DNA of 64,000 nt. Source: Ophelia neglecta. Taxonomy: Eukaryota. Below, piece after piece: positions 1 to 64,000 of this stretch. Position numbers and translations under genes: made by a program. Each line of letters begins with the position of its first letter. Position 1 is the stretch's first letter. Below the pieces are notes generated by a model. The model was not told the origin of the DNA. It saw nothing but the letters and a program-made list of their open reading frames with translations, and made no database searches. Location of the stretch: assembly GCA_965285935.1 (NCBI GenBank), contig OZ260664.1, positions 4,774,001 through 4,838,000 on the forward strand, read 5' to 3'.

Positions 1-2299
1 TTCTGTTTAAATTCTGTTAATGATAAAAGCTAGGCCATACTCTCGCCGCTCGCTGCTACCCAGAATGACAGCAAACCGAATTAGGCGACATTTACCCTCT
101 TTGGTCTATACGATATGGCAAGAAAGAAGAAGTATGGAAAATGAAATAAGAGTCCTCAGTCTGCTTTGTGACCCATCACCCTCTTTTTCAGTGTTGATGA
201 ATTGATCATATGCTAAGTTGATGGCAGCTATTGCTTGCCCTGGAAATTAGTTTGATTCTGTCACTGTTATGCCGTATACTATAGCCTAGCTGTAATCAAA
301 CCGCTTTGATGTTGACCTCACCTGACATGTACAACAATACTTGTCGAACTGTGGTCGACAGTCACACCACTATCAATGCTTATGTACATTTGATAGCCAC
401 TTAACTGATAATGACCCATGATGGGTACTTCAGACGGTCCTATAGGGACCTGTGATGAACTGTCACGGCAGTTAAATATGGTTGATATCAGGTGTGTCAT
501 TGGTGAGATAGCTAGTCCATTGGAGAGAGGTGGTGGTTTATCATTGGCGTGATACCGACTTAAAGGGTAGATTCAAATAGAATCAAAAGACCATAACATG
601 TACACCAATGCATACGAACCGAAAAGGCCGAACATTTTAAAGAACGTTGACAGCAGTTGAACAATCTGCCACTTAGTTGTAGCTACCATCATATATGCGA
701 AACATGCTCCGAATCATCTCGATAGGTAAAGGTGTACACTTTATCTATGGTTTTCATTATTATTTCTTGTTCGTCCTTATTTTGATGAACAGCTATCCAT
801 GTATTACTCTCTAACAGAGTTTAGAACATGTGAATATAATATTGGCGCGTTTTAATTTCACCACCGAGTGATTTTTCACGTAATTTGAGAAGTTAAACCC
901 GCTGGAACATTATAACAGTAACAGTAGCTGAGAGGAGTGTAGAACTCGATTATATGATGTTATTTTTGTTACAGCCTTGTGAAGAACTTTGACTGAGAGA
1001 TGCAGGTGACATTACATGGCTTAGATATTAGTGTAATCTATGAGACACTTTGGAATTACCTTACTGTCCTAAGCAATGAGATGTCTTGTGACTAGTAATT
1101 GCAGTAAAGTCTTTCGGCGGCCTTTCGTGGTAAGTTTGCTTTCATATCGTGAATCCCGGTTTGTATCAGATAAATTTTATATCAGTGCAATAATTTTTGT
1201 TGACTTTTGTTTATTATTTGGTATATTTGGCATAAATCTCATTTTCATTTTTATTGACGATAATGTATTTGATTTCCTGTTAATTTCCCATTCCAACGAC
1301 TTCATTCATTGCAAACATGACCACTCTATATCAAGTATCGCATATCAAGGCCCATGTTTTACTCATTTTGCATTAGAAAATCCTTGCACCAAATCACTCA
1401 ACTATCTGCCTTAGTCTTCTCTGCGCGCAGGTTTCGGGTTTCAGGCCATCGCCTGGGATCCGACTGATAACGCCATAAACTTTGTTTTTATCACTCACGT
1501 CTCATTATATTTTAATATGGGGTATGAATAATTCACCCCATTCTTAGATTGAAGCTCTTTGGTTTCAGATTTAGAGCTAAATGTCACCTACCGCTTGCTC
1601 AACATGGGGCCTTAGAGGCGAAGAAATGAACATTACATAAAACCCTTATGTATTTAATAAATTGCATTAAATGCAGGTTTAGCCGCGGGACATCTGACCA
1701 TATTTGGCAGAATAATGTTTTTCATGATTTTTTACCAGTTTCGACATAATCCATTTAGTTTATTGGTGGAGCTTTAAACACACCCTTATCCAGCGAATTA
1801 CCGTGGCAACACGTCATTTTCCTAGCCCTCCTGATGAGCCTACAATGCTTACAGCAACCTGCTGCCGGTAAAACGCAGACGTACTATGCCGGATTGTTCA
1901 AAGGTAGTCTGATGGAAAAGAATTGACATGTGGATAAGTTTCTTGAGTGAATTTAGTTATGAGTGGTGTGAATAAGTGCGACCCCCAGCTGGAGGTCTCC
2001 AATCACCCCCCCCCCCTAACCCCTTCCCCGCTGTATACCATCACCACACCCCGCTCATCTCAACAATATTCAATGTAATACTATATATCTGTTATCAGTT
2101 GCGGCAGCCATGAATAATTGATTAGGATAAGTATATTTTCTGCAAATATCTGATTTCGACATGCAAAGGTTGACCAATAGGTATCGCCCAATGGATCTTA
2201 TTAAAGTGGATGTATCAGAGTGTGTATTACAAGATAGTGCCTATCTGAGGGTGACAGGATGAGACGGGTTATGGTGTATATCATAACCGATACATTAAT

Positions 2300-3400
2300 A
2301 TCACTTGATAAAAGTTACTGCTCACTGCATATATGTGTTTCCACGGATATAAATTCTTTACATAAACGTAATACAGGCTCCTCTGACTCCAAAGGAGGGT
2401 CGAAATATATTAAAATAGTTACCAATAATCACATTAAACGCAAGAACCTAGTCCCGCAAATCACCGAAATATGTTGGTCTGCTTTGTTCTACCTTCTTAG
2501 TTAGAGCACCCTTATAGTAAGCTGAGAAAACTGGAGTACGGTATGTGAGGCTGAAATAGCTTCATCAAAGCATTATGATAGTATTAAAGCTGTAGGAGAT
2601 ATCTAATCTGAATTCTTTACTTGGTTCGTGAACAAGGGACACCATGTTCAAAGATCGACAACTGCTATTAGGCAGGAAATCATTTGCTTTTGAATCGCTA
2701 TGTACACTTCTTTCCAGCATTTTAAAGATAAAACCATCGATAAAGACATTCAGTCTTCTGTCTTCCTCTTGTGCCATAATCCGTAATTGCATTTATTTCA
2801 ATAATTAATTAATTAATTATAAGTGATTTAGCTCATGCAGTCCTCACATCTGAGTCGGACTTGTACAATCAGCCGGAGCAGATTTACGGCCGTACTGTGA
2901 AGGGTTAAAGTAGTATTTCGTTTAGTTTTACGCCTTTTAGAAACTATTGAACTTTATTGATGCAGAGTAAGATTATAAAACGGGCCAGAAAATATGTCGC
3001 AATGCAGCCTACCACCCAACAGCAATCATTCCAAGTCCTGTGGCACTAAAATTATGTTTTATTCCACCAGAATTATAAAGACATCGTCTGCAATGTCAAC
3101 TTTGTCAGACTCCTTGAAATCCTTTTAAGAAAAGTAATAAGACCCCGACAAGCTTAAGAAGTCCTGGGAAAAATTTTATCGACAAAACTTGCTCACGAGG
3201 GCTTTGCCTGCTAACGAACCCATTATTCCTGATGCGTAAGCCCCATCTTATCTCCTTACAGATGGCGAATATGGGAAAAGAATTGGCCATGGGATCCAAT
3301 CCCGCCGAATAGAAGTATCATAGTTTAAGTCTAATTTCGATATTGCTGCCGGCAATCCATGTTGGCCAAGAAGTGGCTTGTTTTTTGCTTAAATCACATT
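2300..3400 (-). pseudogene. Heavily decayed non-LTR retrotransposon (L1/Tx1-like) reverse-transcriptase fossil, tentative
   Basis: Minus-strand reading across frameshifts and stops gives RT-like motifs in the expected order: ISRSLTK..LQ (~3120-3085, cf. KILSK.LA.RL), F*KA*N (~2945-2925, cf. DF.KAFD), EH(G)CPL (~2650-2630, cf. RQGCPLS), FGD/FAGL (~2470-2450, cf. F...SGL). No ORF survives. Confidence 0.35.
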
Positions 3401-3707
3401 TTCCTTTTCATGCAATAGATCTCCATTCTCAATTGTATTCGCAGATGACAATTTAATATGGTTGTCTGGCGCCACAATACCTTACTCCAACAGAACAGTC
3501 TTTTTTCGTCTTCTTCCAACATTGTTCAAAGCAACTATAAAAAGGCGGCCTGTCAATTTGTTTTGTATCTACTTGTGGTTCGTTTTTATCCACTTCATTG
3601 TATTGAATTAAGCCAATCGAAATTCACTGTCCATTTCTATTTTCTTCAAAGCCTGTCCTACTTCTGTCTATGGAAACGATCCTGAAGGTTGTCTACGTAA
3701 CGCTCTT

Positions 3708-3810
3708 TCAAATCAAATCAAAGATATTTATTTAACCAATAAGCACATTTCAGCAAACATACATTTTTATTGAATGAAAATAATAATGGTAAATATAACA
3801 AACTGATGTC
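3708..3810 (-). mobile_element. Probable LINE 3' tail fragment
   Basis: Minus strand reads AAATAAATATC followed by (TTTGA)n, a poly(A) signal plus short tandem tail typical of CR1/L2-group 3' ends. Confidence 0.35.
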
Positions 3811-4872
3811 AAGTAACTACTCTTTGGTTGTATTGTGCTGCTTTAGTGGGTCTGTCACTACCAATTACCTCTCTAAGTGTCGGATATAATATACATGTAC
3901 GCCTTTAACAATATGAAATATATACTGTAAGAAATAAATGGGCTATGTGCGAATTAGGGCAGGTGGAGGACAAACCAGTGAGGATGAACGCCGTACTCGG
4001 TGGATTTAATATCCGTGTTTTATAGGTTTTCAGGTAATCCTCGCTATGTACGTTGGCTGTAAACCTTACATGTAATCAGATGCCTTTGGTGTTCAACGCA
4101 CCTGACTGGTAACACAAACCACATCACCCCAATGTCAAAGGCCAGACCTTTGCCATTACTGTTAGACATTTAATAGCCACTTTAACAGATAATGTGACGT
4201 TATCACACATGATGGGTCCCACAAATGTCACTTTAGTGACCTGTAATGTAATTCTATCAGTTAGAACACATTGAAGATGGTTAATTGTGTTCTTTGCGTT
4301 AAAACTGCCTGTGGGTACGTTCCAAAGTAATTGATGACATGTTGAAAGGAACTATTAGGTGTAGGTCCTTAGGCTGAGAACAAAATGCACGCACGCACAC
4401 TCTCAAACACATAGAAGTAATAATAAACCAACTCGTTCACAATGGTATCAGTATGTTATGTATTTGATTTCTTATCGTTTAATAAATATTAATTTCTTGT
4501 TATTCCAACACCTTTTTATTGGACCTGATTACTATTTTCCGGACGTTTAAGCACGTACCAAGGCTCCAGTCGGGATAAGTTTGCCTACATCAATTCCAGT
4601 CCACTTGCTCTCAATCCCGTATGACATCCTCAATGTTTACTTGATGTCTACTGTAATGGCGTCTTGTCACATGTGAAAACTTACTATTGTAAACTCATAT
4701 AATAAAGCAAAGGTGGATGATTTTCGTAAGTTTATTAAGATATAGTGATTTATATTTTGTAATAAATTATAAAAGCGATTTAAATATATGTTATATATGA
4801 ATTTCTTTGAGAAGCCACTGATATTTTCTTATAATGTTAAAGCTACTGACATATTGTACTTATTTATAAATT

Positions 4873-5075
4873 GCCGATGCGTTGGTACAGTGCTTACACT
4901 TCTGGTTACCCATTCTGGTGACTCGGGTTCAGTCCCAGATCCAGGCCGGGTCGTCCTTTAGAAAGGCGGTAGCTGCCCCGCCACCAGGTTTCGCCTCCCC
5001 GATGTGCAAGATGTGGCTACGGGGCTGGAAAAGGCCCCTGGACCTAGGATTGCGTGTGGTTAAGAGCATTGAGCG
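4873..5075 (+). mobile_element. tRNA-derived SINE, second family (5' part, diverged)
   Basis: GC-rich island with A-box-like TGGTACAGTGC (~4884) and B-box-like GGGTTCAGTCCC (~4925) at tRNA spacing. It is followed by a non-tRNA body with a GGGGC..GCCCC hairpin. No cloverleaf or terminator is evident. Confidence 0.5.
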
Positions 5076-5470
5076 GTTGTTTTCATATAGTTTTGATATG
5101 AAAAGCCTGTTAAACTCAATTCACCATAATTGTCTGCTCTAGAAATAAATGTTCAGAGTTCTTCAAGCCGTGAAAACATAATCAGTCTACGTATTACTGG
5201 TGTTCTAAATAGAATAATTCAAGTTATTGTTAACCAGTTGCTTTAAAGGTATTAAATTATATGGATGCCAGACTGTGTGATTTCTATCCTTTTGGGTAAT
5301 CTATTTTCATTTAGCAAACAGTCTAAAGAGAAAATTGATCTAAAAGCAACCAATACCAGTTTGGTATATACCTCAGATACCAATTTGTTTCTAAATTTAG
5401 CCATGTCCAAATAGTTTATTAATCATTTTATAGTAATTGATGACAAGTTATTTGCTCAATGTCCATAATA

Positions 5471-5805
5471 CTGGCCTCATAAGATAACTAATTATAAGGT
5501 AGGGGGGGGGTATTACTGGGGGAGAATCTAGAAGAAATTTTTTGGTACCTATTTTAGAGAGAAAATCTTGTTCCCCAACTTCTGAAGGGCAAAATTGATT
5601 TTCTGGGCCCAAGTTAGTATAACAAAATTTTAAAAGGTTTGTCGAAACAAGCTCCAAAAATGATAGCAAGTTTATAAAAACATTTGATAAAACATTGTTC
5701 GAACGTCATCTTCGAGCAACCAAATCCCGGATAATATTAAGGAAAACAATGTTTGGGAAAGTAATATTTCTGGACCCCCCTCATGTTATCTTATGCTGGT
5801 CACTG
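5471..5805. mobile_element. MITE (~330 bp, PIF/Harbinger-like architecture)
   Basis: Inverted repeat CATAAGATAAC (5478-5488) / GTTATCTTATG (5785-5795), each with an adjacent internal G or C run, around an AT-rich non-coding interior. Confidence 0.55.
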
Positions 5806-6839
5806 ACTAATGGGGAGTAAGTCACATTTCCTAGCTTTCAATAAATTCTTGAATTAGTCAAATCTCGTTGTAGACGAATTGTACATTCATGACAAAAATA
5901 GAGTAGGACAATTGTCTTTCCTCTTAACCCCTATCGAAGAACGTTTGTTCATCCCCACGAGTACAATTAGGACGTGGTGTAAGGGAATGTGATTGCACTG
6001 AGAGATAGTTTCTATCGCGGGGACACAGGAGGGAAGTTATTACCGCAGTAATGTCCCAGTAGGGGATAAATGACCACAGCGGGAGTAAATCGCTGATATC
6101 ATGGTGTATTTACCATTCCAAGTTGTGATTGTACTCCTCGCGTACGCCTGAAATGGCCATGGGGAGGAATAAAACGGGTTTGTTCTACATACCATTAGGC
6201 CTAAACCATGTCAATAGAGTCAATAAAAGCCAAGCGTAGTGACAGGAATGGAAGCCTGTGCGTTAACGGCGCCTACCAAAGCTTCGATGACACGCAGAAA
6301 AAGCTTTTTATTATCAGTGGAGATGAACATAAACTTAACCCTACAATCCCATTTATATCACCTTTCGATAAATGGGTTTGAGTTGGGTTATAAAATGACC
6401 ACAAATGTAGATTATTCTGCTATCAATGCTGCTATTGTAACATATTTCGCCATTATCACAAAGCCCATTGAGACTCAAAGCGACTCAATTCCGTCCTGGC
6501 CTCATGTCAATAGTGATCCCTGTTACTCCAAATTAGCTGTGGCCAAATATACAGACATATTTTAGCATCTACTTACAGGACATTTCAGTTTGCCTGGTTT
6601 TTCTCCCAGAAGTCCCTAGGCGACGGGAAGATAACTTCTTACAGTAGCGATTATGGGTTATATTTTAATGTCGGAAAAGAAGTCTAGTGAAGTTGAAATA
6701 AAATGATCATACCTTTGGATGAGATTGTCTTATTTTCTGTTCCAGACATGCTATTGAGGTCATTGTGATGTCATTTTCTACTTTCTAAGATTACCAGAGA
6801 GCAGCGAATGCCAAGTGGCAGATCAATGCTCTACTGGGT

Positions 6840-6923
6840 TGTTTGGGGGGTTTTTACGTGGCTTTCAACACTTATCGGTCATATCGCCACAGTGCCTACT
6901 TGTGACAGTGGGCTCAATGCCCT
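6840..6923 (-). mobile_element. 5'-truncated copy of the Meta-type SINE (3' end only), with TSD
   Basis: Near-identical to 56065-56148. Flanked by the direct repeat CTCTACTGGGT at 6829-6839 and 6924-6934. Confidence 0.9.
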
Positions 6924-7032
6924 CTCTACTGGGTGCGGGCACAGTCAATGACAACACACAAACTGTTAGTAATCTTTAGTTGACTCCAGTTGTGCCAAGC
7001 TAAATCAATTAAATCGGTGCTATACCCTCAAC

Positions 7033-7270
7033 AGCCGTCACCAAGCCGTCAAGAAAGGTCACGAAATTGTCAAGAAACGTCATGAAACTCTCAAAGAAAG
7101 GTCATGAAACTCTCAAAGAAAGGTCACGACACCGTCAAGAAAGGTCACGAAACCATCAAGAGAGGTCACGAAATTGTCAAGAAAGGTCACGAAATTGTCA
7201 AGAAAGGTCAAGAAACCGTCAATAGAGGTCCGATACCATCAAGAACTGTCACGAAACCATCAAGAAAAGA
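7033..7270 (+). repeat. 21-bp minisatellite (CCGTCAAGAAAGGTCACGAAA), ~11 units
   Basis: Direct inspection; explains the KKGHE repeats of ORF 7104-7379. Confidence 0.95.
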
Positions 7271-9249
7271 AATGTCCTTGCATTTTTCATTGCAGGCAAA
7301 TGTAAACTGTGTTAGTGGGATAAAGAATCTCATGGCATTCACCTGGCCACATTCAGTTGGAATGCACTTTTCCAGTTGATAATTGACTTCATTTGTATTC
7401 GATTCGAAGTGTGAGCGTCGTATAAACAAACTCACCAAGAGTTTCGAATGTAAGGCTACTACAGACGGCATTGAATTGATTATTTCCATCTTGACTGATG
7501 ATACTGTAGTCTAACCATAATCAGTTTCTTTCGCAAGTAAGTGGTTTTTCCAAGTTGCCCCTGATTGTTGAGTTTAGCATGTTGATTTAATGCCGACCGT
7601 CCCTCATGTCTGTTTACATAGGAGAGCCAGAGCTTTAGGGCATCTTTTTATGATTGGTCAATGGAATCTTGAACAACTGTTTAAATAAATCGGGCTTGAA
7701 AGATACATGTACTGTTCTGTACAGACGTGGCATGGCTTTCTCTGGATTTATATAATGAACTAGGAGGAAGTGAAGAGAGTCATTGAACCGAATGTCAGCG
7801 ATGAGCTAATGGATCGGATCTTGTTGTGTGCCTCAATGATTGGTACAGTTCAGGAGTTTCCAGGGCAATTTATTTGAGAATGTAGTGGCAATTTCCCTTT
7901 TTATCTCCTTTCATTATGCGTTAAATTGGTGCCTGAGTGAATATATTTGAATAATAGTTGTCAATTGTGTACCACTGTCATGGCTCACCTTAGTGTGGAC
8001 ATTCCTGTTAAACCTTGTGTTGCATAGAGCATGCATTGTTTATGCCCCAAACCGACATCTATACAATCTGGGCAATCATCTCTGGTGTGGGACTGCGCTG
8101 AGAACACAGCTACTTGGTTCCATCGATTATATCATTGGTGCTCAGTACGTTCCGATTCAACATTTCCTTCTATTATGAAAGGTGGAAATCACTGACACCT
8201 TCATCAAAACGAGTCAAACCAATTACCGTCTGACTGCCACCTAATAGCAGTGTATAATGACTACTAAAGCCTCTTTGATCTTTTGTTAATCACAAGCATG
8301 TTTGTTATTTTATTGATCACACATTATTTTGATTTGTACCTCAAAATATCGACTGATACAAGCATTGTCTGATCTCCAGGGCACTTAGGCCCCGTTTCCT
8401 CTCTCCTGTTAGTGGGATAAGTTTCTCTTGTGCTGTGACCCCATCATTGAACGCTGTTGTCTAGTTTTTGTAGTACGATTTAAATTATTAGTTGTTTATT
8501 ATTTATGTCGTGATAAGCTTCTTCACAGGCCGGGACTGGACGAAGGTCGAACTAACTCTATCCGCATTGTCACAAGAACCATGAATCCTACATAATCACT
8601 CCTCAGTAGGGTGCTAAAAATATGCATATGACTTATGTGTTTAGGTAGTAGCAGGTGTAACCTCAGACCTTACCATATTTTACTGTCATAATTCTCCTAT
8701 ACCTTCCGACCTACTGGTATGCATACTACCTCCGGTATGGATTATATAGTGTTGCCAGCGCATTTAGTAGGAACATCGCACCTTTCACCTCGTTGAAATT
8801 GAGCAAAACTGGACCCTGAATTCCATTATATCAATACCGGAAGTCAATAGAAATGCCAAATCCCTGGATACAGCCATTAGTCGCTTATTTGGCCTTTGAT
8901 GTTGGGAATATATTTCAGAACAGACATCCCCTTTGATGACTCAGGGAGGAAGCAACACTCATTTAATGGTTTACCCACTTTGATAATAAAGACTGAAACT
9001 GGACTGACAAATTTCTGAAATAAACCTAGTCAGAATTCATAGAACTCAGCAGTGAGAGTGCTATTGTAGCTAAGATTACTGAGGGTGGTACTTAAACAAT
9101 CTTCTTCCCGTACAGTGTTAGAATACCGAAGGCCTACGGCATAAAATATGGCATAAAATATTAGTGTCCGCCCTTAAATCTCCTACATTAAATAGGGGCC
9201 CAGTAAGCCACACTTGTTATTGTGCTTAGTTGGAAATAGAACTACAAGT

Positions 9250-9900
9250 CCTTGCCATTTTACACAAGAAAGCTGTCCAAAACAAACAATGAATAAGGGA
9301 TTATGCCGATTTTCAACATTTGCTCTCTATTAAAAAAATGTTTCCAATGCCTTAACTTTTGCTGTCCTCACTGAACAATTGCACATTGTTATTCACTTTT
9401 TATCCTCGCTTTTTGCAAGCTTCTGTAATTCATGCGTGTAAAGTAAGCCTAGAAAATCCCAATGAAAGACCACATAATCCAGATATTTTGCCTAGGTTTT
9501 TGTACAGTGTTTATTGTCCTCGCAAATAATCTGTAGTCCACCAGGGTTACAAAGTCTGAATAAGGACAGAGCCATGAAAATCTTATTCAAAATCTTTGAA
9601 AGCCAACGAAATATCATCTTTAGACTTTGCGAACCCTTTCAGAAATTTAACGTCATGTTTCAATTTCGAAAAACCGGCTGCTGCCCGGCAAACTCAGGAT
9701 GGATACCGGGCGATCAAAGCAAAGCCATTAATCAATCAACATGCTTATATACACATTTGTTCCAAACTCCTGCCAAACCTGAAAACCCCAGTTTCTTCCT
9801 GTGTGCAATACACTTCCACTCAATTATGTATGCAGTAGACAAGATAATCTGTTTGCCTGGGATTACAATAGCTTGCCCCGACAGCACAAGGCTCTTTCCT
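9250..9900 (-). pseudogene. Decayed DDE transposase-like fossil (Kolobok / 'Mutator-like' PF20700-type signatures), tentative
   Basis: Minus-strand fragments in the expected order: DYLVYC..GLAG..KC, DDISLAF..HGSVLI..PG, DY...NKHCTK (cf. TGKVLDY...NK.C..C), ALETFF..R..VENRH (cf. AME..GA..IF.RS.EKH). Many stops and frameshifts. Paralogous at DNA level to 23900-24600. Confidence 0.35.
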
Positions 9901-11079
9901 CCAAAGATTCCTTTTTCTTTCCAATATGTTATAAAACCAAAAGGTACCAGGGATTCTTCCATCCAACGTTGTTTAGTTGGTACCCATTAAGGTTGTTTCG
10001 AAATTAAAGCATTGGTGGTTTACTTGGTTTTCCTTCCAGGCCGAATTCCATACTTCTTGTTCTGCAGATATCTATCATTGACGTTCATTTGTACATTCTG
10101 CTTAAGACGGACATACAACTTCAATGGATCACTCCAAACCTTATTTGTTTGACAAAGTCACATGTATGGTTTTCAAAATTATTGCCATGAGGACCATGAA
10201 AACGACCAACCAAGTGTTTGTAATTGGCAGGATAAAAGCAATGGTAAATATTGTTTGTTCCGATTTATGGATTGTCAAGCATGTATAATGTACGTCTTAC
10301 TACAATTTGTTTGTATGTTGGTCACTCGCGCTCGTCTGTAATGGGAACTATTACTCTGACCTAAGCTCGGTAAATAACATTCTCGGTCTCCATCACGCAA
10401 TTCCTATTTAACATGCATCCGAATGACACTATAAGGTTTGTATTAATTGCCGTAATCAGCCCATTTGTCCGATGATATTGCTAATGAATGGGCAGCTTTT
10501 GTGTGTTGATAGTAGTAATAGTGGCGAAATGGACGAAATTAAGCATAGTTATGGCCCAACTAATTAATGTATTAGCTACATTTGACTTTGTGTTATAACC
10601 AGGACTGCCCATAGCTAAATTTACGAGTAAAGGCAATAAAACAGTGTCCATTTCAACTATCTACCCATTCTAACTACCTGAAAGCAATTCTTGTTCCTCG
10701 AAAACATTCTTAAATCTTACCTTAAACTATCTCGCAGCCAACCTGTGGTATTTTGCCCTCTTTGTTGTTGATGTGGTCGTCAGTGTAATATACCCCTAAA
10801 ATCCATATATCACTCCATCCGCGCTGACCTCCTCGGACTAAGTCAGGCTTTCATCGCCTCAGCTTAATTAATTCTCATTAATTCCCGTTATCCATGCAGC
10901 AGATCGTCTGCGGACTAATGTCCCCGATAATGGCCATTAGACCACCTTATAAATGACAGCCATGACTCAAGCTTGGTTGTGAATCCGGGTTATCTCTGTT
11001 AGCTGCAGTAGCTTCCTGCCCAAGATTGTATTGGAAGGATATGAGCTGTCCAGCTATGGATGCCATTGGATGGAGGGGA

Positions 11080-11770: not shown

Positions 11771-12087
11771 AAGGACAGTTAAGACTTATCCTATTTTAAA
11801 CAGGCTTACCTGAGGTTATCTGGGTTTCCACTCTCTTTTATTGCTATTAAGACTATTAAAGTATAAGAGGAAGTGTAAGACAGTGGAGTTCAAATTAATT
11901 AGCTTAGTGTGGATATTGAATTAACAAAATATGTGGCTGCAACCTGGTTGAAAGATTAACGGTTATTCAGTTATGTTGATTAATACCCATCAAATCTGAT
12001 ACACATATGCTTAAAACCACGTAGTAACTTACTAACTCTTAATAGAGCATTTTAAAGTTTTCCCAATTCCTGATAACTCAAAATGCA

Positions 12088-12280
12088 TTAGGCCAACCCT
12101 TTAACCCCTGTTGTCCATACTATCGTTAAAGCAAGCCACCAATGTTTGTTTAGGCCAGCCCTTCAGTTCCCTGATGTCCAAACTCCAAACTTCCGTTAAA
12201 GCCAGCCACCATTTTAGTTTAGGCCAGCCCTTCAGTACCATGTTGTCAAGACTATCGTTAAAGCCAGCCACTAATATTTG
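12088..12280 (+). repeat. 62-69-bp tandem repeat, 3 units
   Basis: TTAGGCCARCCCT at 12088, 12150 and 12219, each followed by CGTTAAAGC.AGCCAC. Confidence 0.9.
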
Positions 12281-15672: not shown

Positions 15673-15790
15673 TAGAGAGAAATATTTTTTTACTAATTTC
15701 TTTTAAACACCAGAGAACTTGGGAACTGTATGATGAGTCAGAGGTAATGCGAAAAAATGTCAGTCGCTAGAGAGAGAATGTGAGAAGCAG

Positions 15791-51378: not shown

Positions 51379-51409
51379 TACTGTCCCCTCTGTCCCTCTA
51401 TTGCCTTGT

Positions 51410-52790: not shown

Positions 52791-53092
52791 TATTCCTCTC
52801 AGTTTAATAGTTTTTTATTGCGGTACGTTGCTTCCTTATTCCTTCTTTCCTTCCTTCTTCTCTTCCTAAGAGCAAATTATTCTTGCGCGTCTTGTAAACC
52901 ATCCACCTTTCCCTTTTTAGTTAGTTATTTTTCCCATTATTGCCCATGTGCCCGGGTTAAACAAAGCATGCCATGATTTTGTCTAATGGCTGCTGCCTCT
53001 CTGAATAGAGCGGGCACTGAAAGACACAAAAGGGCTGTAATGAGGAGAGTCGGTAGGCGGTTTGTTGATGTACTTCCTTGTATCATACTCTA

Positions 53093-53171
53093 AGAAGATA
53101 TATCACCCTTCACTAGGAAGATATATCCCTACTCTGGGAAGATTTATCACCCTACTCTGGGAAGATATATC
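53093..53171 (+). repeat. 21-23-bp minisatellite (GAAGATATATCACCCTACTCTGG), ~3.5 units
   Basis: Direct inspection. Confidence 0.85.
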
Positions 53172-54246
53172 TGTTCTTCAAATTTATTTCTCAGAAACAT
53201 GCAGGAGACACTGCTGTTGATGATAACCTGCAGGAAAGATTTCTACACAGCATAGAATACTTTGTTACATATTTTGTGATTAGACACCACACCCGATAGG
53301 AGCAGAAATGCCATTTCTGAGCCTCAAGCTAGCCAGCTGATTGTAGAAGGCGCTAGTAATAAAATCAAGATGGCGCACAAAGGAAAACTGGGCGCGCCGG
53401 AGCAATTTAAGTGGAATTGATTTGTCCTTTACACACTCAGGTGTGTTGTAATATTACGAGCCAATAATCTCTAACCTTTCTCACACGTTAACACAATGAA
53501 ATATGACTCATTCATCAATTCATCATCACACCTAGAGGTGTAGTTCAGCCATTATTCAAATGGCTTCTTCCGTTTCCTGTATTAACCGTTGTGATTGATT
53601 GATCTCTCATTATTAAGCAACAATGCGTAAAATAAATTCTCAGACATTCTTACAAATATTTTTTGCTAATTCACCTTTTAAAACATTATAACCATTCCAT
53701 AGAATATTAATATCACAGAATTGTCTCTGTGTAATCATTATGATCGGCAAACAATATGGCGTTCTATTCTCCATTATTATAATGTTTACATGCTCTAGCC
53801 ATTACCTCCCATCGAGCCTACGCACAAAGGGAGGGGTATCTGATATCCCGTATTGTCCTCCACAATGATGTCTCCGGCCTAGTGTATTATGTCAAGCCAG
53901 GCCCGATTGATTTGTACGTAAATACTGACCGGCGACAATCGCCGCCTCTCTGTGCATGTATTTATCACATACCACTCCTTTACAGAACGACCCCACCAGT
54001 AATATAACAGACATTTAATGATACACTGGCAAACACAGATTTTACAACGGTGACCATTCATCTCATGATACCATTTACACATAGTAAATACTGGGGGTGA
54101 ATTGGCCAATTAAATAACAAGCGCATTTAACATTGGGCAGCGTCCAGCGTCCACTCTCGGTGTGTCTGTTTGATTTACTATACAGTTGATTACCTTCAGG
54201 ACGATACCGATAGTATGTCCCTTCATTATCTTCAATAATACACCTG

Positions 54247-54444
54247 GGCCCGCACTCTGCAAGCAGTCTTATATCTAAATCGAGGATTAAAATCAGGATT
54301 TAAGTGCTTAATCCGTCTAAGGTTTCTAAGCGGGGTTTCTAGAAGCTTGATTTGGTGGTAAACATTGCCATTTTGTTCTGAAAGATAATCATGGAGAATT
54401 AATACGGCTCACCTAATAGGTTATAGGCTAATCTGATCATAAAC
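54247..54444 (+). mobile_element. MITE family H1, right end truncated
   Basis: CTG|GGCCCG start; ATCAGGATT, CGGGGTTTCTAGAAGCT and ATAGGCTAATCT core. Confidence 0.75.
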
Positions 54445-55363
54445 GTATCTAAATGTGTACGATGATCGGGAAATTCCCCATAATTTAAAGATCCGGAAAA
54501 AGTTTCCTTGACGTAGCTCTACATTGCCTAGGACATCACTACACCAACCCAATGTCGAGATGTCTCGTTGATCTTATACAGTGAAAAACTGACTCGTCCA
54601 GTATCCGATTGGTAGATATTACTTGGGCTAATAGTACTCGAGGTTGTGCCTTTACAACTTCTTATGCCATTGTTGTTTAAGACCTATATGCTTGGAGTCT
54701 CTTGTCCCCTGGAGACCACGGTAATCATTGTGTGTCCTAACATATACAGAGAAGAGGGTTAAATAATTACAGTGTTAATAGCTTGTTAGAGCGTCCGAAT
54801 TGCCACCAAAGGAAAGCTTGATCTCTGTTTTCTCTGTTATAATGATCGGGTTTGCCCAAAGACTTGTTCGAAATTATTGCTGTACAGCAATGTTACTGCA
54901 TTTGTTTGACCGATATTCAGACCAAACATTCGCCACATTACATAGTTCCACGCGTTCAGGTCTTCACAGGAATGTTGATGACTGCTGATAAGTGTCAACC
55001 CATTTATAGGAGAGACTCTCAAACCTAAAGGAATTTTAACCTCTTCAGGTACTACCGATGATAAATTGAATTGTAATGAAGTGCAGTTGGTGTACTTGGA
55101 GCGTGTCCACTCAATTGATAATGGTCTACTGATCATAGGGCTAACAAAGCACGGAGATTTCAGTGGAGACCGCCGCAGTCAGCTTGTGAGATGACCTCAG
55201 ACAGCTAATGCATACCATGTTAATACCTCATCTATCGTGTTTGACTACAGGCTTCTAGCTGCCTTTAGTCTTGTAGTATGTTAGTAAAGTCAAGGAGCAA
55301 ACGCTTCAGCTTGATATGTCTTCATTATGCCGCCATGGGAGAGTTTATTCATTTGTACCTATA

Positions 55364-55642
55364 GGGCCGGGTGTTAACAGATACTTAGACTTAAAACTTG
55401 TTTCCATAGTTTCAGACTAAGAATTGAACTTCTGACTTCAAATTAAATGACTAAGACCAAAGTGTTTTTTTAAAGTGTCTAAGGCTTAAGTCAAGTGTGA
55501 TTTTAGACTTCGACTTTTCTTAAGACTACTAAGTATATCTGTTAGACTCGCTACTTGACTTAAGATTGAAAAAGACTGAAGTCAAAAAGAAGTCGAAGTC
55601 GAAAATTTTACTTCGAGTCAAGAATCTTTTAACAATCGGCCC
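55364..55642 (+). mobile_element. MITE family H2 (PIF/Harbinger-like), full length
   Basis: GGGCCGGGTGTTAA / TTAACAATCGGCCC|CAG TIRs, with internal GACTT/AAGTC subrepeats in palindromic arrangement. Confidence 0.85.
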
Positions 55643-55933
55643 CAGGTCATGGTAAGGCGCTGTTATGAGCTGTTATAAGATGTTTATAATAACCATTATC
55701 ACAAATAGTTTGATGTTCATTAGAAGATATTTTGGTTAACTTCAATGAATAATTTAGTTTACATCATAGGAATGATTTGCATTTCTAAGACTAGGTGATA
55801 GTGTAAGCACACTGGAGCAAAACAGTAGAATTTGAAGTGACCAATAAAAGCCATTTTGTGAATTGTAAAGCCCTAATATCAATTTCAATTTACATAAAAC
55901 AAGCTTCCAGGAATGTATGCCAACTTAAGGGTA

Positions 55934-55984
55934 AAAACGTGTACGTACTTAAGTATGAAAACGTGTACGTACTCAAGTATGAAA
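55934..55984 (+). repeat. 24-bp tandem duplication (AAAACGTGTACGTACTYAAGTATG x2)
   Basis: Direct inspection. Confidence 0.9.
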
Positions 55985-56050
55985 TCTTAGGGAAAACCAA
56001 CTATCAACTCAGTTTTTTACTAAAGGGTAAAATTCTAGATTAATGTTTAG

Positions 56051-56384
56051 GTTGGTTGGTTTGGTTGTTTGGGGTTTTAACGTGGCTTTCAACACTTATC
56101 GGTCATATCGCCACGGTGCCTACTTGTGACAGTGGGCTCAATGCCCTCTTTAGAGTGCTGCCTCACTGGAGTACCTGCCGTAGACACCAGACAGGGAACC
56201 CCACCCAGTCACATTATACTGACACCGGGTTGACCAGTCCTGATACTACCCCCGAAATACCGGGCGCCTGGCAGGGGCTATCAGTACCAATTTTTACGTC
56301 TTGGGTTTGACGCGATCGAGCTTCGAACACCGATCTCCAACTTGCGAGGCGGACACCCTAACCACTCGGCCACTATTTGGCGGT
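56051..56384 (-). mobile_element. Full-length tRNA-derived SINE with a Meta-type central domain
   Basis: Minus strand: A box TGGCCGAGTGG, B box GTTCGAAGC, central GGACTGGTCAACCCGGTGTCAGTATAATGTGACTGGGTGG (Meta-domain-like, recognised from memory), and an (AACC)n tail. TSD GATTAATGTTYAG at 56038-56050 and 56385-56397. Confidence 0.93.
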
Positions 56385-59300
56385 GATTAATGTTCAGCAA
56401 GGCTCGTTTGGTGAATCTTCTCCATTGCTAAAAGGTTAGAGGCGATACATAGCAATGTAATTAAATTTGGTTTATTCTTTTCCAGAACTATATTTCAAAC
56501 GTCATTTGATGTTTCAACTGCTGATACTTATAACGTTTGTAGTGAACTGTGAGTTTTCTATAAAATGGATTGTGGTAAGGCATGAATGTACCTCATCAAC
56601 GTGTCATGTACCTTGATTAATGGAGACCAATATTTATTTCCTGAAAGAAACTCCATTTGTACCTTTCAATGATAAACATGGATCGTCTTGTAGAGAGTCA
56701 AAGGTTACTGTGAAGTCCTTAATTTTTTATTTGAACCTTTTCCACCACATTAAACCCCAAACATCACACAGTAATGTCCGTTCATCCGTCTTCCCACCTA
56801 CAGTAGCTCCATAAGGATGCAATATCGTCATTTTCCACCACACAGACAAACTAAATAGCCTTTGTATCTCAACTCAGACAGATATAACATACAGTGAGAG
56901 TCGTGGACATTTCAAGGGCATCTATACAAAATGAAGTGGAGTGCAATGTAAACGAGTTCCGTGCTCCCGTTAACAGTACAGGGATCTTGTTACCGGTGAT
57001 CTTACAGTCCATCTCAGGTCAATAGTAAGAATATAAACTGAACCTGTGGGCCACATATGATGAACAGATGACAGAAAATAATAAGATATTGCGCAATTAT
57101 ATTTATAGTAGTCAATCTGTTCTAGGATTCACATGAACAGAGTTAATGAATTGCGTAGGTTTTCTGTGAATTGTGTGGACCTAGATTAAAGTGCATGTAG
57201 CTAGAATAGGACCCGCCATTTTAGCGGTTTATATCACTTTTACAACTATAATGTTTGAACATAAAACAAATTTTTTAGATTATACTAATTAAAACACTAA
57301 AATGAACATTAGTTTGTTAATTCCTTGTTTTTAACATAAAGGTTTACAACATCGCTTAATTTCAGAATTGTTGGACCGTATAATGATGTGACATTTCCTT
57401 ATGGAACCAGTTATCAATTAAAACAATAACCTCATCCTCAACACTCCCTCTCCAATATCATTAGTTAAGAAAAGTCCTTCAAATTGGTCCGAAATCATCA
57501 GGAAACAGCAATAACAACCCCACACTTGTCAATTCATCAATCTCCAAGTCCCAAACAGTAAACAAACATGTAAAAATATAATTCTGAAACAAAAATATTG
57601 ATATCATTTGCAAAAAGAAGTAGTCAACAGTTTTCAATGATGCGGGTCAGATAAAAAAAACAAGCAAGCTGTCAACATTCGACAGATATGCAATATGTCC
57701 CAAGAGAGGCTATGACGGTGTAAACCCTCTCATAATATGCAGATACTATAGATGAAAGTGTCCCCGTGAACACTAGACCAAAGAGAGGTGTTAAAGCTCC
57801 CTGGTCACAGATACATTTGTTCGTTCATGTCAATTATACATTTTAACATTCGTCGGTTGTAACACGGCTTTTTGGCAACATATAAATATACAACAGCTTT
57901 GGGATACAATGCAAATTACATTCTGGGGTGCAAAACACAGTACTTGCCTTGTGCTTACAGTCAATGGTTATTCTGGAATGCTATAATCAAATACCATGCT
58001 TTTCCGCCAAATTAACTTTAAAAGCATAACGCAGTGAACTTCGACCATGCGCATTTAAGCAATACCAAAATAGTGTCTCGAGGATATCAGATTTTAGTTC
58101 CTACAGAACAGACATAATTAAAACCCATTTGTGCCACAACCAGAACAAATCAAACCAGATATTGGATTGCTAGGAAAACGCCACTAAATATTTCCACACA
58201 AGCATAAGGCATGGTTATAGGAAAGGAAGTTCTTGCCCCTTACCCCCCCCCCCCCCCACACACACACACATACCCTCCACTGCACTCCACGGACCTCCAA
58301 GTACAGGGATGTTAAGGGTACATTACGTAGATAAGGATGTTGGTTAAAATCGTAATTACTGTTGAAAATTGTTAGTTAATGAAGATAATTATTTAAGTAT
58401 GTTTCTGCTGTGTTTGTTATGGCAGTAGATATGTCATCAGATGTCAGGGAGTCTGAGTTTGTATTGCAGGACGCCCGAGGGTATGGGTGGAAGGGGGTTA
58501 TATCTGGTACGTTGGTATCTGTGAAGGGTACATTAGGTACAGGAAACGGGTTGACTGATCGCTTAGTGGGTGGTGTCTTCACTGATTGTTGTCAGGCGGC
58601 AAAGTGAAATATAGCGCCATTAGCAATGCAAGACATTGATAAAAGTTGTTGTTAAAAAGATCATGAAATACCTTGACTGTGCTATTTTTGGCAAGGAGAA
58701 TGTATATGTATTTTAGGTAATGATGGTGAAGGGTTTTAGTCGAACAATCCTATGTACATTTAGTATATTATTGTGGCAGTCGTGAGTTCTAGTACTATTC
58801 ACCTGCTGCATGTCTTACTGCCAACATCACGTTTCTTAAACATCAAAAAAGTGAAATCTACCTTGCAACTGCACTTTTTAGAGGCTTCAGTTGACAACCT
58901 TCCGCCTGCTCACTTATTTGTGCTGGCGTTCACATGCTGTTTTTGTATTACTTGTATTATCATACCAAATAATGTTCCATTGCCCATATATTTACACCGT
59001 CAGTCTTCTCATTGATGAACCCACACAGCGCACAGGATTTACAGACGTGTTCGGACGATAATAATCAGTCTCAAACCATCAGAATAAAAACCTAATCAGA
59101 CCATAGATAGGTCGCGAGCTTATAAAGCTAGCTCAAGATTATATGCTTTATCTGGAGAAACTCTGCTTCTACATATATACTGTGGCCGGTTCATCCCATT
59201 AAGTGACAAAAATGCGCTCCAACTCTGAAATCTACCAAAGAAGCTCCACAAGGAATGCCCCTTAAAGCGATGATGTTAAATCAGGAGTTAGCTCCTTTAA

Positions 59301-61677
59301 AGCTGTGTACGTGTGGTGGTAGTCATTCAAGCCTCTTTCACTTAAAACCGTTGACATGCGCAAGAGCAAACAATTCTTATCATGAACACTATATCCTCAT
59401 TCCAAGTCGCATGGTTTTTTCTTAATTGCTCGTTCCATTTAGGTCTAATTACATGCAATATCAGATTCATTAACCTATGCCCTTTTCTTAAATTATATCA
59501 TTACTGCTGCGACAGGGAGCGTCATGTTCTGCACAAGGACGTTTAACTGGCTCCTACAATTATCGAGTTTTCTTTAAACTGTGTTCCGTGACAGTCTGCC
59601 CACTTAGAGTCACACTTGGATTATTTCGACACCTTAGCTATTTGCTGTCTAATTAAGTCCCAGTCCTTTCATTAGCCATGGTGCATCGGCTTTAAGGCAA
59701 CCCTTTCAATAGAGAGACATTCGGCTGAGCTGACTCACTTGGAGATCAATGCATTACCAATGTTTCACGTAAGTTCGTACGAAGCTTGGACTGGTCGCTT
59801 AGAATTACCAATACAAAGAAACTCGGATCTGGATTTTTTAACTGTTCAGTGAAATGTGAACTTATTATTTCGGAGTTTCATAGTCCCCCAAGTCTGTATT
59901 ATTAAGTTGGGATGACACTTAACCCCCGGCTTTGGCGGAAATTTGAGGTTCATTCTAGTTGGTTTGAGTTAGTCATGTTCCCAGGCACCCGTGGCTTAAT
60001 ACACCAGAGACCGGAATGATATTTTATATTGTATCTACGTTCTTGTTCCCCATCTTATCATATCAGTTTCACAAAGCCATTGCGGGCTTTATTAAAATGA
60101 TCAGTTATGTCAATTTGACAAAGTGCATTTACAGTCCTAGTGAAATCGGGGTCTCTTTGCGTGGTGTCAATATTTGCAACCTGATAAAAACTACAATGTA
60201 TTGTTCTCTTAGAGCAGACGTCGCCGGCTGTGCCTTCTTCATGGTTCATTATAATAGTCAAATATCAGATCGTTTAGAACGAGCTTGGCTTAAAATGACT
60301 ACGGCGTTGTCTACTAGAATTGCGAGTCGGAGTGTGATTCATTAATACCGCCTGGCTTTCCTTCTTTTACGGCAGATTCCAATATCAGGGTGCTGCATGC
60401 TTTTTGTAAATCATAGCATTTGATTTATACCAAAAGGGCACTCAAATCGTCTGGCGCTTATTTCTTTTACATGCGAAGCTCCCTGCAGCGCAAAGGCCAA
60501 ATATGATTTTGCTAATACAACATTCCTATATCCAATAAAACCACAAAGACCATATAAAGAGTTAACTTGGGCTGTAAAAATGGCTGGTCCCTTGGAAACA
60601 GGATAATAACGTATTTAAAACTAAGGTACCAAGGCTCAAAAGGCCATTTTTTCGGTTTGAATGGATTCCTTGACTGAACGCTGACGATATGTGCAAATAT
60701 GGAGTTATAATCATTGTACCTATGTTCTTGGCATCGAGGATGGTACCTTTTAACGTATATTTTTCAGTTTTCTATTATTATCAAATCGTCCTTTCCGTTA
60801 TTACTGTGTAGGTCTCTATCTGAATGAAAAGTTATACCTTTTATATCGTTAAAGGTTGTAAAGTTGTCATATGCACATTTTCTTGGACTGCGCATCACAA
60901 TTACATGTCCTTTGATCCATTATTCATTCGGTGTAACTGAGATTGACACTGTACAGTATGCCTAATGTCAAATTCCCACTCCTGCGTTTTACTGGAAAGC
61001 CCCTGCGTGCGCGACCTAATTTTACCCGTTCTACTTAGGAATTCCTACAGAAGTACCAATGAAATATTGCATTTATAGGATTTGAATTTCGCACCAAGTT
61101 CTACCAGTAGCCATATTTCCCACCTTAAAGCCTTATTGCAATTATAGATACAGCGGTCTACAAGAGGTTGGTAGGGCCACTTTCAGCTGTGTGTGGGGAT
61201 AAAACATTGGGAACTATTTAACTGGCATTTTATTCCTACGGGTTAAAGTGACTGAAACAGAGCAAGTGACTGAATATTCAGATGACTTATATACAGAAAG
61301 AGCTTTCCCAATGTGTGATTTCTATAATGGTCTGATGCCTTCATGGATTATAAATTGCTCAGATATCTGTTTGTTGCTGCCAGGTATCCCTAATTCATCA
61401 TAGGCAGCCCAACCGTCATTACATACCCCCTGCCCTGGCCGCCAGTTGGCTGGCATCTGTAACCGCGACATTTATTTCCATTAATCCTTGATCCAATTTA
61501 GTTTCTTTCTGCTTACAAATGCCATGGAATACTGGCCATGAGGAGCCTTAATAGATGATCCCCTCGACCCAGTTTGTGTGATGCATCCTATTTATTGCTA
61601 ACCTAATGTATCTTAAAGTGCCAGGTGCCGCCTGTTCAGTTGGTTATGGTGATTGGCCTGGGAGCCGGTCAGTTAAA

Positions 61678-62130
61678 AGAAGAGAGACGGGGCGAGAGAC
61701 GGGGCTAGGTGGGGTAAAAGAAGGGAAGAGAGGGGTGGAGAGGGAGCTAGGAGGGGGAGGGAGGGGAGGAGAAGGATCCAGGTTGGGGAGAGATGGGAAG
61801 AGAGGGAGCTAGGAGGGGGGAGAGGGGGGAGAGGGGGGAGAGGGAGATAGGAGGGGGAGAGATGGGAGGAGAGGGCCCTATGTGTCGGGGAGGGGGAGGA
61901 GATGCAGCTAGGCGAGGGTGAGAGGAGAGGAAAGGGAGCTAGGGGAGGGAGAAGGGGAGGGAAAAGGGGAGGGGGAGCTAAGAGGGGGAGAAGGGAGGAG
62001 AGGAAGCTAGGTGCGGTAGAGAGGGGTAGAGAGGGAGCTAGGAGGGGGAGAGAGGGGAGGAAAGGGTTCTCGGTGAGGGAGAGAGAGGAGGAGGAGAGGT
62101 ACTAGGTGGGGGAGAGATAGGGAGAAGGGA
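61678..62130 (+). repeat. G/A-rich polypurine low-complexity tract with recurring GAGGGAGCTAGGAGGGGGAG
   Basis: About 450 bp of almost only G and A; the RGG-like ORFs are a consequence of this composition. Confidence 0.95.
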
Positions 62131-62698
62131 GTGTTGTAATAGAACGGGAGTCGATGTTTGTCCCTTGAACCTACAAAGTGTAAATAGTTCGGCTTCAACA
62201 AGTATTAATGTATAAGTTCACAATTGAATTTCAATACAATTTATTGTTTTGCAACCTATTATGTAGCGTGTTAAACATGAATTGAGCAAATGAAAGCTCT
62301 CTATGGAAATAAAAACCAGGTTTTCCTGGATCAAACATGTCTCTTCGGTGATGTAGAAAACTTCATGTTTAAATAGACTCTATCAGTGGGGCGGATTATA
62401 ATTTTCAATAATTGAACCATTTAATAGAAGTGAATACTTAAGTTTCCCTGTCCATTTGTGAATATTGAGCTGCTACCAATAGTAAAAGTGCTGTTATTAT
62501 AGGTGAAAACTTCCCTTTAGTGTTCACACCTGTGCGGAAATCATTGATCCCCAGTACAATACGCCTGCCTGCTAACGGTATTGATGGTGTATTGATGGTC
62601 TGTCCTTTACAAACCCTGCCTGTTGTTAATGACACCAGTACATTGATCAGCCGTTACACCTCCCCAGGTGATACTACCAATTGTCCATTAGATCTTGT

Positions 62699-62845
62699 CA
62701 CGTGTCTTATGTCCGGTGTACAAGTCGAGTTGTATGTCCAGGAGTAGGGAGCCAGATACACGTCTCTTATGTCCGGTCTACAAACCGAGGTGTATGTTCA
62801 GGAGTAGGGAGCCAGGTACACGTCTCTTATGTCCCGTCTACAAGC
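62699..62845 (+). repeat. 60-bp tandem repeat, ~2.5 units, followed by a C/T-rich tract to ~62940
   Basis: CACGT.TCTTATGTCC at 62699, 62759 and 62819. Confidence 0.92.
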
Positions 62846-64000
62846 CCTCACCTCTCCACTCGCCCTCTCACACCCTCACCTCTCCACTCACCCTCTCCGA
62901 CCTCTCACCTTCCCTTCCACTTTTCCTCCTCCCACCCACCTTGAAAATGCACGGGAAGGTCGCAGAAATACCAGTTCATAAAATGGCCGGAAAAACTGTC
63001 AAAGGCAAGACAACAACAATGTAGCAAATTTGATGTATTCTCCGTAACTAGTGTTTTGTGATTTACTCTCAGTTTTAGCCTTAGAACTTAGTTAAAGCCG
63101 ACATCCACATTTGACTAATAACCAGACTTAATCGTCACTCCAAAGAAAACCCATTCCGTTCATCGCATCGTCTGCAGCTGCCTGTTCCTGTTGTATTTTA
63201 GCGGATTTCATGGACAGATTCTTGAATATGGATTTCGCTTTGTTTGCGTGGTTTTTACTCCCGTTTTTATCAATATTTCCTGTAACATCCATGTATTGGT
63301 TTAGGCGTGTGCTGCCCAGAATAGCTACAAATTAACGGGTAAAAAACACCTTAAAAGTTCAGAGTACTCTGCATTGGCATTAAATACTGGGCACACGACT
63401 GTACTACACGCGCGGCACAACACGCGCCGTGCCCGCCGCCCTGGCTGCTAGTTGTCACTTACAGCAGACACAGCAGTCATTTTGCTGCAGACACAATAAG
63501 ACTGCGGCCTCTGTATCGCTGATCGCCTGCGAGGTGTTACCACAGCTCGGTGTTGTTATGTAGAGGGAGCCTTTAATAATTGTGAATTCTCTGTCATAGG
63601 ATACAGCTATTGAAGGTGTTTATTGCTACAATCCATCTTTTCATTGACGCCTATCATGTGCTGGATGTGGATTGCAGGTACGCCTTTATAGACCAGACAG
63701 ATTAACTTTGACCTTTGACCTGAGGAGTTAGCTGTGATTTGCTTTTCCCTCACAAAAGGTAAGCAGTAGCTAGCATCTTTACAGTTAGCTTTGATCTGAT
63801 ATAAGTGACATATTGGCTGCAGGGTTGGCCAAGTTGGCTAATGATATCTGGGAATGGAAGGGAGTAAAGTCTCCCACCATACACAGTGTAGATCAGGCTG
63901 GGCTTTCATCATGATCCGATGATTCTCCAGGATATTTCTGGCCATCTTTTGCAAGAAAATTATGAATATGTTGACTGATCAAAGTAAATCACAAGTACAG

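Follow-up and report, generated by a model that had tools for sequence, protein, structure and literature searches.

A patchy head-to-tail array of highly diverged 14-18 kb units in the genome of Ophelia neglecta, likely a relic of local duplication of non-coding DNA

The window analysed here is a 64,000-nt stretch of the Ophelia neglecta genome (assembly GCA_965285935.1, contig OZ260664.1, positions 4,774,001-4,838,000, forward strand). Four successive units of 14-18 kb carry collinear blocks, all on the same strand and arranged head-to-tail. No block common to all four units was found. Instead, the units hold complementary subsets of blocks, and each copy pair aligns over a different 0.6-1.9 kb. 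The unit borders given below cannot be fixed to the base because identity is only 63%. The features of the array are as follows (positions within the window).

1-10700, plus strand: nested three-fold partial repeat with a period of about 3.3-3.8 kb, seen in chain scores and profile matches; members x (about 1-3300), y (3301-7000) and z (7300-10700)
280-457, minus strand: block A0, paired with 4060-4248, each of the two having a strong donor-like site in register (321 and 4101)
10771-14024, plus strand: tail of unit 1, aligning to 61365-63839 at an offset of 49.5-50.6 kb; blocks L (10771-10997), M (13028-13214) and O (about 13560-14024; CpG window in the top 1.8%, then a donor-like site at 13944, score 11.2, together at 13541-13950)
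14051-30500, plus strand: unit 2, in which block O was not found; blocks B (16270-16541), D (17416-17685), E (18001-18169), F (19055-19173), G (21877-23265), H (23862-24550), I (25063-25569), K (28444-28515) and L (29581-29783)
30501-48300, plus strand: unit 3, in which E, F and G were not found; blocks B (32788-32895), C-D (35345-36139), H (38542-39283), I (40932-41445), J (44041-44176), K (44387-44459), N (45298-45391) and O (47648-48002; CpG window in the top 0.9%, then a donor-like site at 47977, score 6.8, together at 47631-47983)
48301-64000, plus strand: unit 4, in which H-K were not found; blocks B (50759-51035), C-D (53372-54077), E (55049-55222), F (56743-56857), G (59334-60603), L (61365-61679), M (62506-62694), N (63181-63273) and O (63363-63839; CpG window in the top 0.1%, then a donor-like site at 63759, score 11.2, together at 63401-63765)

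Aligned blocks account for 10,327 of the 51,041 unmasked bases (~20%), masking of dispersed and tandem repeats having removed 12,959 bp in all. The first-pass annotation, in which all of the window's 'unique' DNA appeared to be a four-copy array, therefore overstated its extent and was wrong in detail: the blocks are patchy, and what was called copy 1 consists of a nested triple followed by the tail of a unit. The repeated sub-segment of this triple is H-I-J, present also at 23.9-25.6 kb and 38.5-44.2 kb. Its members chain with each other and with unit 3 (x-y 70, y-z 45, y-c3 94, x-c3 35, z-c3 23; null maxima 4-17), and profile matches tie 3391/9783 to 24437/39062. The chain scores of x (12.5) and z (8.3) against unit 2 are not above null.

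The remaining features are these.

15776-16024, no strand assigned: copy of the MITE-like family R1, about 240 bp with terminal inverted repeats, used as a neutral yardstick
56030-56385, minus strand: tRNA-type SINE-like element R2, with an A/B-box-like head (56372-56323) and a simple-repeat tail; copies 86% identical
19239-20911, plus strand: young direct tandem duplication of 830 bp within unit 2, its copies 92% identical
14548-15676, no strand assigned: non-autonomous DNA transposon-like element of ~1.1 kb, with 61-bp, 97%-identical inverted arms
41958-42122, plus strand: probable 3' end of a LINE ORF2, presumably of CR1/L2 type, labelled by its motif

R1 is present in seven copies, at 15776, 23352, 25886, 30718, 37214 (inverted), 48103 and 54221, and its insertions look copy-specific because similarity stops at the element ends. 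Partial copies of R2 lie at 6820-6943 and 45996-46191; three short motifs of this element had no match in the portions of two supplements that were searched (PMC4824008, PMC4758252). For the LINE-like ORF (41958-42119), neither Pfam nor a word-index homologue search confined to longer sequences returned anything, a weak negative. Short satellite-like arrays are also abundant in the window; its minisatellites are not the same from one unit to the next and, being unit-specific, are not part of the unit.

Homology between the units is of a kind that default-sensitivity blastn hardly reveals: self-alignment then gives few diagonals, and it takes a word size of 4, ungapped scanning and Smith-Waterman alignment to bring them out. 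With tandem repeats alone masked, Smith-Waterman alignment above 28 bits yields 65 same-strand versus 21 opposite-strand matches, the reversed and complemented controls giving 16 and 4. After masking of dispersed repeats the figures are 31 and 3, a ratio that is partly circular because masks and copy borders were hand-picked after the matches had been seen. Collinearity holds for 23 of the 27 inter-copy matches above 27 bits (permutation mean 14.5, maximum 22, 0 of 50,000 permutations reaching 23). Of the six copy pairs, five have chain scores much higher than the controls (c2-c4 220, c2-c3 219, c3-c4 196, c1-c4 81, c1-c3 81; controls 4-20); copies 1 and 2 have no direct alignment above controls (chain 8.0 versus 5.4-10.3). 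These pair statistics were obtained with a jump cost of 22, since a cost of 15 lets in noise, and some block ends were taken from the latter chaining. The identity, coding and splice statistics given below come from 29 realigned blocks, that is, the 31 matches minus three that fell below the realignment threshold (19055/56743, 25814/45345 and 61399/63407), plus one from a match split in two.

Same-strand collinear homology at these scales had been proposed from the first reading of the sequence, and the Smith-Waterman, permutation and chain scores bear it out. The anchors on which that proposal was built were of mixed quality. Seven of the 14 quoted extend (5959/44073, 16402/50892, 21895/59352, 23071/60404, 35345/53372, 36093/54031 and 47704/63482), with scores of 56-118 against a null p99 of 40.5. 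The other seven score like random 600-bp pairs (21-28 versus a null p95 of 33, n=276); these are 3941/41094, 10645/48401, 14047/49201, 27207/63917 and all three copy 2-3 anchors (12961/29661, 23620/45004 and 24001/45214). The copy 2-3 offset, claimed to be ~17-21 kb, measures 14.6-19.5 kb. Offsets are 15.6-18.1 kb for c3-c4, 31.9-37.5 kb for c2-c4 and 49.5-50.6 kb for c1-c4, while the spread of c1-c3 (31-42 kb) is due to the nested repeat in copy 1.

That the array holds no detectable gene, as first suggested, is borne out as far as the sensitivity of these searches goes. A Pfam scan of 300 ORFs, out of 303 that have at least 52 unmasked amino acids, gave no match above a curated cut-off; at E<=0.01 five of these 300 gave matches, all below the curated cut-offs and from unrelated families, and none came from the 143 shorter ORFs on blocks, all of which were scanned. 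The 75 plus-strand and 59 minus-strand exon candidates include no in-register pair, and no conserved coding exon recurs in register per unit as in a tandem coding-gene array. A coding signature appears in one of the 29 blocks, as 16 codons and then an 8-nt gap, with stops nearby; the single outlier of the coding test, 18001/55049, has p=0.005, the lowest value that 200 shuffles allow, and could not be extended when inspected. Rfam gave no match at gathering score in the window (best E=0.44) and ARAGORN no tRNA, so that the units match no known family of structured RNA (snoRNA, miRNA, ribozyme or tRNA).

Several individual candidates were likewise discarded. Block J (5927/44041), read as a Cys-rich peptide, has neither cysteines nor frame common to its copies (coding p 0.985), and the copies of block A0 do not keep a reading frame. 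Family N/R4 (27179, 45292, 46229, 63170, 21170) was considered as an exon but has no common frame; its out-of-register copies and one inverted copy show it to be, at least in part, a dispersed repeat. A PKD-like reading of the minus-strand ORF 321-572 is without Pfam support. One frame of block G2 gave four phmmer matches (E 6e-7 to 1e-4); BLASTP of two of these showed repetitive proteins with a best single match of 25-29 bits, and the other two were scanned with Pfam only. Word-index homologue searches with a 164-aa ORF (9496-9987; near lengths only) and a 125-aa ORF (59968-60342; longer sequences only) found nothing, both weak negatives.

On balance, it seems likely that the array consists of ancient local tandem duplications of non-coding DNA, probably intronic or intergenic, which have been decaying without selection. 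Neutral decay of a tandem segmental duplication, one of three options raised at the outset, fits the divergence, indel and conservation statistics. The blocks (62.8% identity, K2P 0.52, over 5,660 columns) are more diverged than the MITE relics inserted afterwards (69.4%, K2P 0.40, 20 of 21 pairs aligned), a yardstick that sets only a lower bound on the age of the duplication; were the duplication far older than the MITEs, the aligned 20% could be a constrained remainder. Gap density is similar (2.2 versus 2.0 per 100 columns), and gaps in multiples of three (20/127 versus 14/81) reveal no triplet bias. There are no conserved islands (7 high-identity 30-column windows versus 10.2 after shuffling), mismatch is 0.55 at CpG sites against 0.41 at other C/G sites across the blocks, and identity is similar across copy pairs (59-68%). 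Mild signals run contrary to neutrality: perfect runs of at least 10 nt are slightly in excess (28 versus 20, P=0.043), and splice-like sites are kept in 24 of 132 cases (18%) versus 11% in neutral simulation, 3 of 60 simulations reaching that count. In addition, four of the five donor-like sites scoring at least 9.5 inside blocks form two in-register pairs, and the neutral partner of a strong donor would score at least 9 about 5% of the time.

The units would have arisen through several rounds of unequal crossing-over or of replication-slippage-type duplication, at differing breakpoints. Each would then have lost different pieces, leaving every pair with different alignable sequence, and the overlapping duplications, into which MITE, SINE and minisatellite DNA later inserted, would have been eroded by deletion and transposon insertion. 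The T>A and C>G skew suggests that this DNA may be part of a long plus-strand intron, although such use of skew comes from work on another taxon and the bias could be replication-related. The array itself presumably serves no function of its own at present.

The second option, an array of regulatory, non-coding RNA or first-exon units, retains one modest lead, block O. Block O closes three units, and in each copy a CpG window within the top 0.1-1.8% is followed by a donor-like site in register across all three. It is conceivable, if unlikely, that the array is one of duplicated promoters serving a plus-strand gene with its coding exons downstream of the window, each unit comprising a promoter, block O as untranslated first exon, and a long intron. 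On this reading the window would be the 5' variable region of a large invertebrate gene. Each 14-18 kb unit would end in a CpG-rich promoter and an O exon spliced to common downstream constant exons, and these would have been kept long after the remainder of the unit had decayed. The O pair supplies two of the five highest-scoring donors on the plus strand of the 64 kb, and the neutral retention probability of the O donors is 0.024 (score at least 11) or 0.175 (at least 5.5). However, the feature is post-hoc and was scored with approximate splice matrices, and an equally strong donor pair (321/4101) lies on the opposite strand. Moreover, conservation in block O (about 62-66% for most of its extent) does not exceed that in other blocks, similarity continues past the donor, unit 2 appears to lack it and the copies have no common start codon or frame.

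The third option, tandem copies of a very large ancient mobile element, finds no positive evidence in the window. We think it improbable that the array is a head-to-tail concatemer of a large, now ORF-less element (a Helitron/Helentron rolling-circle array or a Penelope-type tandem), even though all units share one orientation, nested partial copies occur, and the satellite-like arrays recall those that Helentrons carry in oyster (PMC7492417). No transposase, helicase, RT or endonuclease match was obtained, at a sensitivity limited by this decay, and a lack of coding remnants would be expected of non-autonomous elements too. A fuzzy motif scan gave noise only. The likeness of block H2 to a GIY-YIG motif, seen by eye, is without Pfam support even at E<=5; no element ends could be made out, and the minisatellites vary from unit to unit.

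A former tandem gene cluster, with small, fast-evolving exons pseudogenised or too short to detect, is more improbable still: multi-kb tandem arrays are common around genes, exons under about 28 codons escape the Pfam scan and a few short stretches look protein-like by eye (36028-36141 versus 54008-54097, blastp E=6e-5), but the identity of the DNA accounts for these stretches (coding test p=0.25), neither frames nor stops recur between copies, and protein searches were negative or gave repeat-inflated weak matches only. A duplicated haplotype in the assembly would be near-identical, and copy pairs are 59-68% identical.

A limited literature search found no precedent for such an array. Macrosatellites and megasatellites are multi-kb tandem units homogenised to high identity. 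The array shares with them only the multi-kb tandem unit; in place of full-length, near-identical copies it has mosaic units about 37% diverged, of which 20% is alignable. Among variable-first-exon systems, which reportedly include the 5' cassettes of chelicerate sDscam, are the vertebrate Pcdh, Ugt1 and Gcnt2 clusters, with PLEC1, NOS1 and GR also listed (PMC1885805). Like such clusters, the array is tandem, shows birth-and-death of units and could supply a promoter and a 5' donor per unit; unlike the variable exons of Pcdh, Ugt1 and Gcnt2, which are long, conserved and coding, it has no ORF, conservation peak or constant exon in view. Should block O be a duplicated promoter and first exon, the array would offer a directly testable invertebrate example of promoters multiplied through tandem duplication, a non-coding counterpart of protocadherin/UGT1-type promoter choice. 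Cg_HINE of the Pacific oyster, non-autonomous Helentrons with internal satellite-like arrays (PMC7492417), are likewise ORF-less and rich in short tandem arrays; their repeats form a common central module and their copies are dispersed, whereas here the 14-18 kb units are local and the minisatellites unit-specific.

The array resembles a relic of tandem segmental duplication in its same-strand, collinear multi-kb units, copy-specific deletions and insertions, and nesting. Such duplication arises in non-coding DNA by unequal crossing-over, and catalogues usually count about 90% identity or more. At about 63% the array is far more diverged than these, which is why it is cryptic, and no gene was found in its unit. 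If it is neutral, it shows that old self-duplicated DNA which default BLAST and repeat masking fail to reveal can pass for unique intronic or intergenic DNA in an animal genome, and this would bear on the accounting of genome size and intron growth rather than on a new mechanism.

The tandem array is real, though patchy and mosaic. Tile-by-tile local alignment gave 117 same-strand and 35 opposite-strand tile pairs above 35 bits, and none in the reversed control. After masking of tandem and dispersed repeats, which took out 12,959 bp, 31 same-strand matches above 28 bits stand against 3 on the opposite strand (65 to 21 before dispersed-repeat masking), a ratio that is partly circular because masks and copy borders were placed by hand with the data already seen. 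Collinearity holds for 23 of the 27 inter-copy matches (permutation mean 14.5, maximum 22 in 50,000). Chained alignments score 81-220 in five copy pairs versus 4-20 in controls made by reversal, by complementation or by both; copies 1 and 2 score 8, inside their own control range. Seven of the 14 anchors on which the first-pass annotation based its array extend past the 99th percentile set by 276 randomly drawn pairs. The other seven do not, including all three that joined copies 2 and 3; the offset between these two copies near 24 kb, given as 21 kb, measures 14.6 kb.

The homologous segments follow one order, lettered B C D E F G H I J K L M N O, and are distributed as follows.

First 14 kb: three partial H-I-J copies with a period of 3.3-3.8 kb, then L M O
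14.05-30.5 kb, unit 2: B D E F G H I K L
30.5-48.3 kb, unit 3: B C D H I J K N O
48.3-64 kb, unit 4: B C D E F G L M N O

No block common to all four units was found, profile searches included. Since the blocks are so unevenly spread, since only 10,327 of 51,041 unmasked bases align, and since smaller local duplicates occur (34521/36753, 37843 and 54128), the history is one of overlapping duplications and complementary losses. The tandem homology originally proposed stands, but not the four intact units. There is also a young tandem pair of 830 bp (92% identity).

The blocks behave as neutral relics do. Twenty-nine of them, realigned over 5,660 columns, show 62.8% identity (K2P 0.52), and seven copies of a MITE-like family, used as a neutral yardstick, show 69.4% (K2P 0.40). 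Gap density per 100 columns is 2.2 versus 2.0 in the MITE copies, with a like fraction of triplet-multiple gaps (20/127 and 14/81). High-identity windows are not commoner than after shuffling (7 versus 10.2); perfect runs of at least 10 are slightly in excess (28 versus 20, P=0.043), those of at least 13 are not. The MITE copies appear younger than the duplication, because similarity ends at the element ends; as they give a lower age bound only, weak constraint is possible if the array is far older.

We consider it probable that non-coding DNA was repeatedly duplicated in local tandem by unequal exchange and then decayed neutrally. The copies would have accumulated neutral substitutions and unit-specific deletions, and later received MITEs, SINEs and minisatellites. 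The array may lie in an intron and is probably functionless.

A less likely explanation, though the best placed of the others, is a promoter array in which the first exons are untranslated. Its candidate site is block O, which closes units 1, 3 and 4, opening with a CpG-dense window (ranked among 4,583 overlapping windows) followed some 350-400 bp later by an in-register donor-like site.

~13560-14024, unit 1: CpG window in the top 1.8%; donor-like site 13944, score 11.2
47648-48002, unit 3: top 0.9%; donor-like site 47977, score 6.8
63363-63839, unit 4: top 0.1%; donor-like site 63759, score 11.2

A neutral partner of this donor would reach 11 with P=0.024 and 5.5 with P=0.175; allowing for donor number and post-hoc choice, we estimate the chance level of the pattern at ~0.005-0.05. 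Splice-like sites in the blocks are also kept above neutral simulation (18%, 24/132, versus 11%; 3 of 60 simulations reach the observed value). However, the donor-like sites were scored with approximate splice matrices; block O is conserved no better than its neighbours, its similarity runs on beyond the donor-like site, it was not found in unit 2, its copies have no common reading frame, and the opposite strand has a strong donor-like pair too (321/4101).

Further sites were observed.

280-457 and 4060-4248 (-): two copies of a segment that resembles an exon, both with strong donor-like and acceptor-like sites in register; frame open in one only (84-aa ORF, 321-572)
63708-63720: direct repeat just upstream of the unit-4 donor, missing from the other two block O copies; similar to the DR1 consensus of nuclear-receptor sites
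44654, 44734, 44815 (+): within 160 bp and ~80 bp apart, three donor-like sites that rank among the ten strongest on the plus strand, with 21-22-nt stretches between AG and GT nearby; single-copy in the window; perhaps the decayed remains of an 80-bp repeat, or else alternative donors or micro-exons

The window (GC 40%, CpG o/e 0.64-0.66) is probably animal, likely invertebrate, non-coding DNA, with many unrelated minisatellites and MITE-like and SINE-like repeats. T exceeds A throughout (z=-7.3 after masking, with 3.4-5.0% per unit), also outside aligned blocks. Its repeats include the following.

7030-7270, 11067-11690, 22140-22425, 26295-26890, 27665-28405, 30270-30575, 31405-31930, 49820-50425, 51595-52650, 61700-62125 and others: minisatellites, more than a dozen, mutually unrelated, periods 21-65 bp, none common to two units; similar segments bordering the 51.6-52.65 kb array (51436-51507/52685-52760) may mark a carrier element
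8436-8556 (-), 27158-27296, 29138-29243, 45888-45969 (-), 57453-57672, 45292, 46229, 63170, 21170: R3/N, old dispersed family or families in both orientations, one copy pair by chance in array register across units 3 and 4
41511-41770 and 55354-55642 (75% identity); 27018-27144 and 42695-42819 (-) (~70%): two-copy MITE-like or dispersed repeats, out of array register
12828-12925, 14250-14330, 18975-19035, 32488-32545, 33858-33960, 58200-58290: short poly-C/poly-G-containing repeats, both orientations, masked, probably small transposon ends

That the array is a concatemer of copies of a decayed mobile element seems improbable; Helentron-type elements are reported to carry tandem repeats (PMC7492417), and the window array offers no positive evidence of such a carrier. 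Least credible is a gene cluster whose small exons were lost or became undetectable. One block of 29 passes the coding test and fails on inspection; of 303 long ORFs, the 300 scanned gave no Pfam match above cut-off, and the 143 short ORFs on blocks gave none; no in-register exon pair emerged from the candidate-exon comparison, and protein homolog searches were negative or returned repeat-inflated noise. The longest non-repeat ORF in the window has 164 aa, and neither a tRNA nor an Rfam match was found there.

Among known systems, variable-first-exon clusters serve for comparison (PMC1885805; PMC4835542). Here an in-register donor-like site occurs in three of four units, and the CpG enrichment may mark a promoter. 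The array belongs neither with coding gene arrays, macrosatellites or known ncRNA arrays nor with assembly duplicates. No direct precedent came up among the papers that literature searches listed, which is weak evidence of novelty. Both features examined, collinear same-strand homology and neutral decay, are those of a segmental-duplication relic, and the array is a further case of this already known kind.
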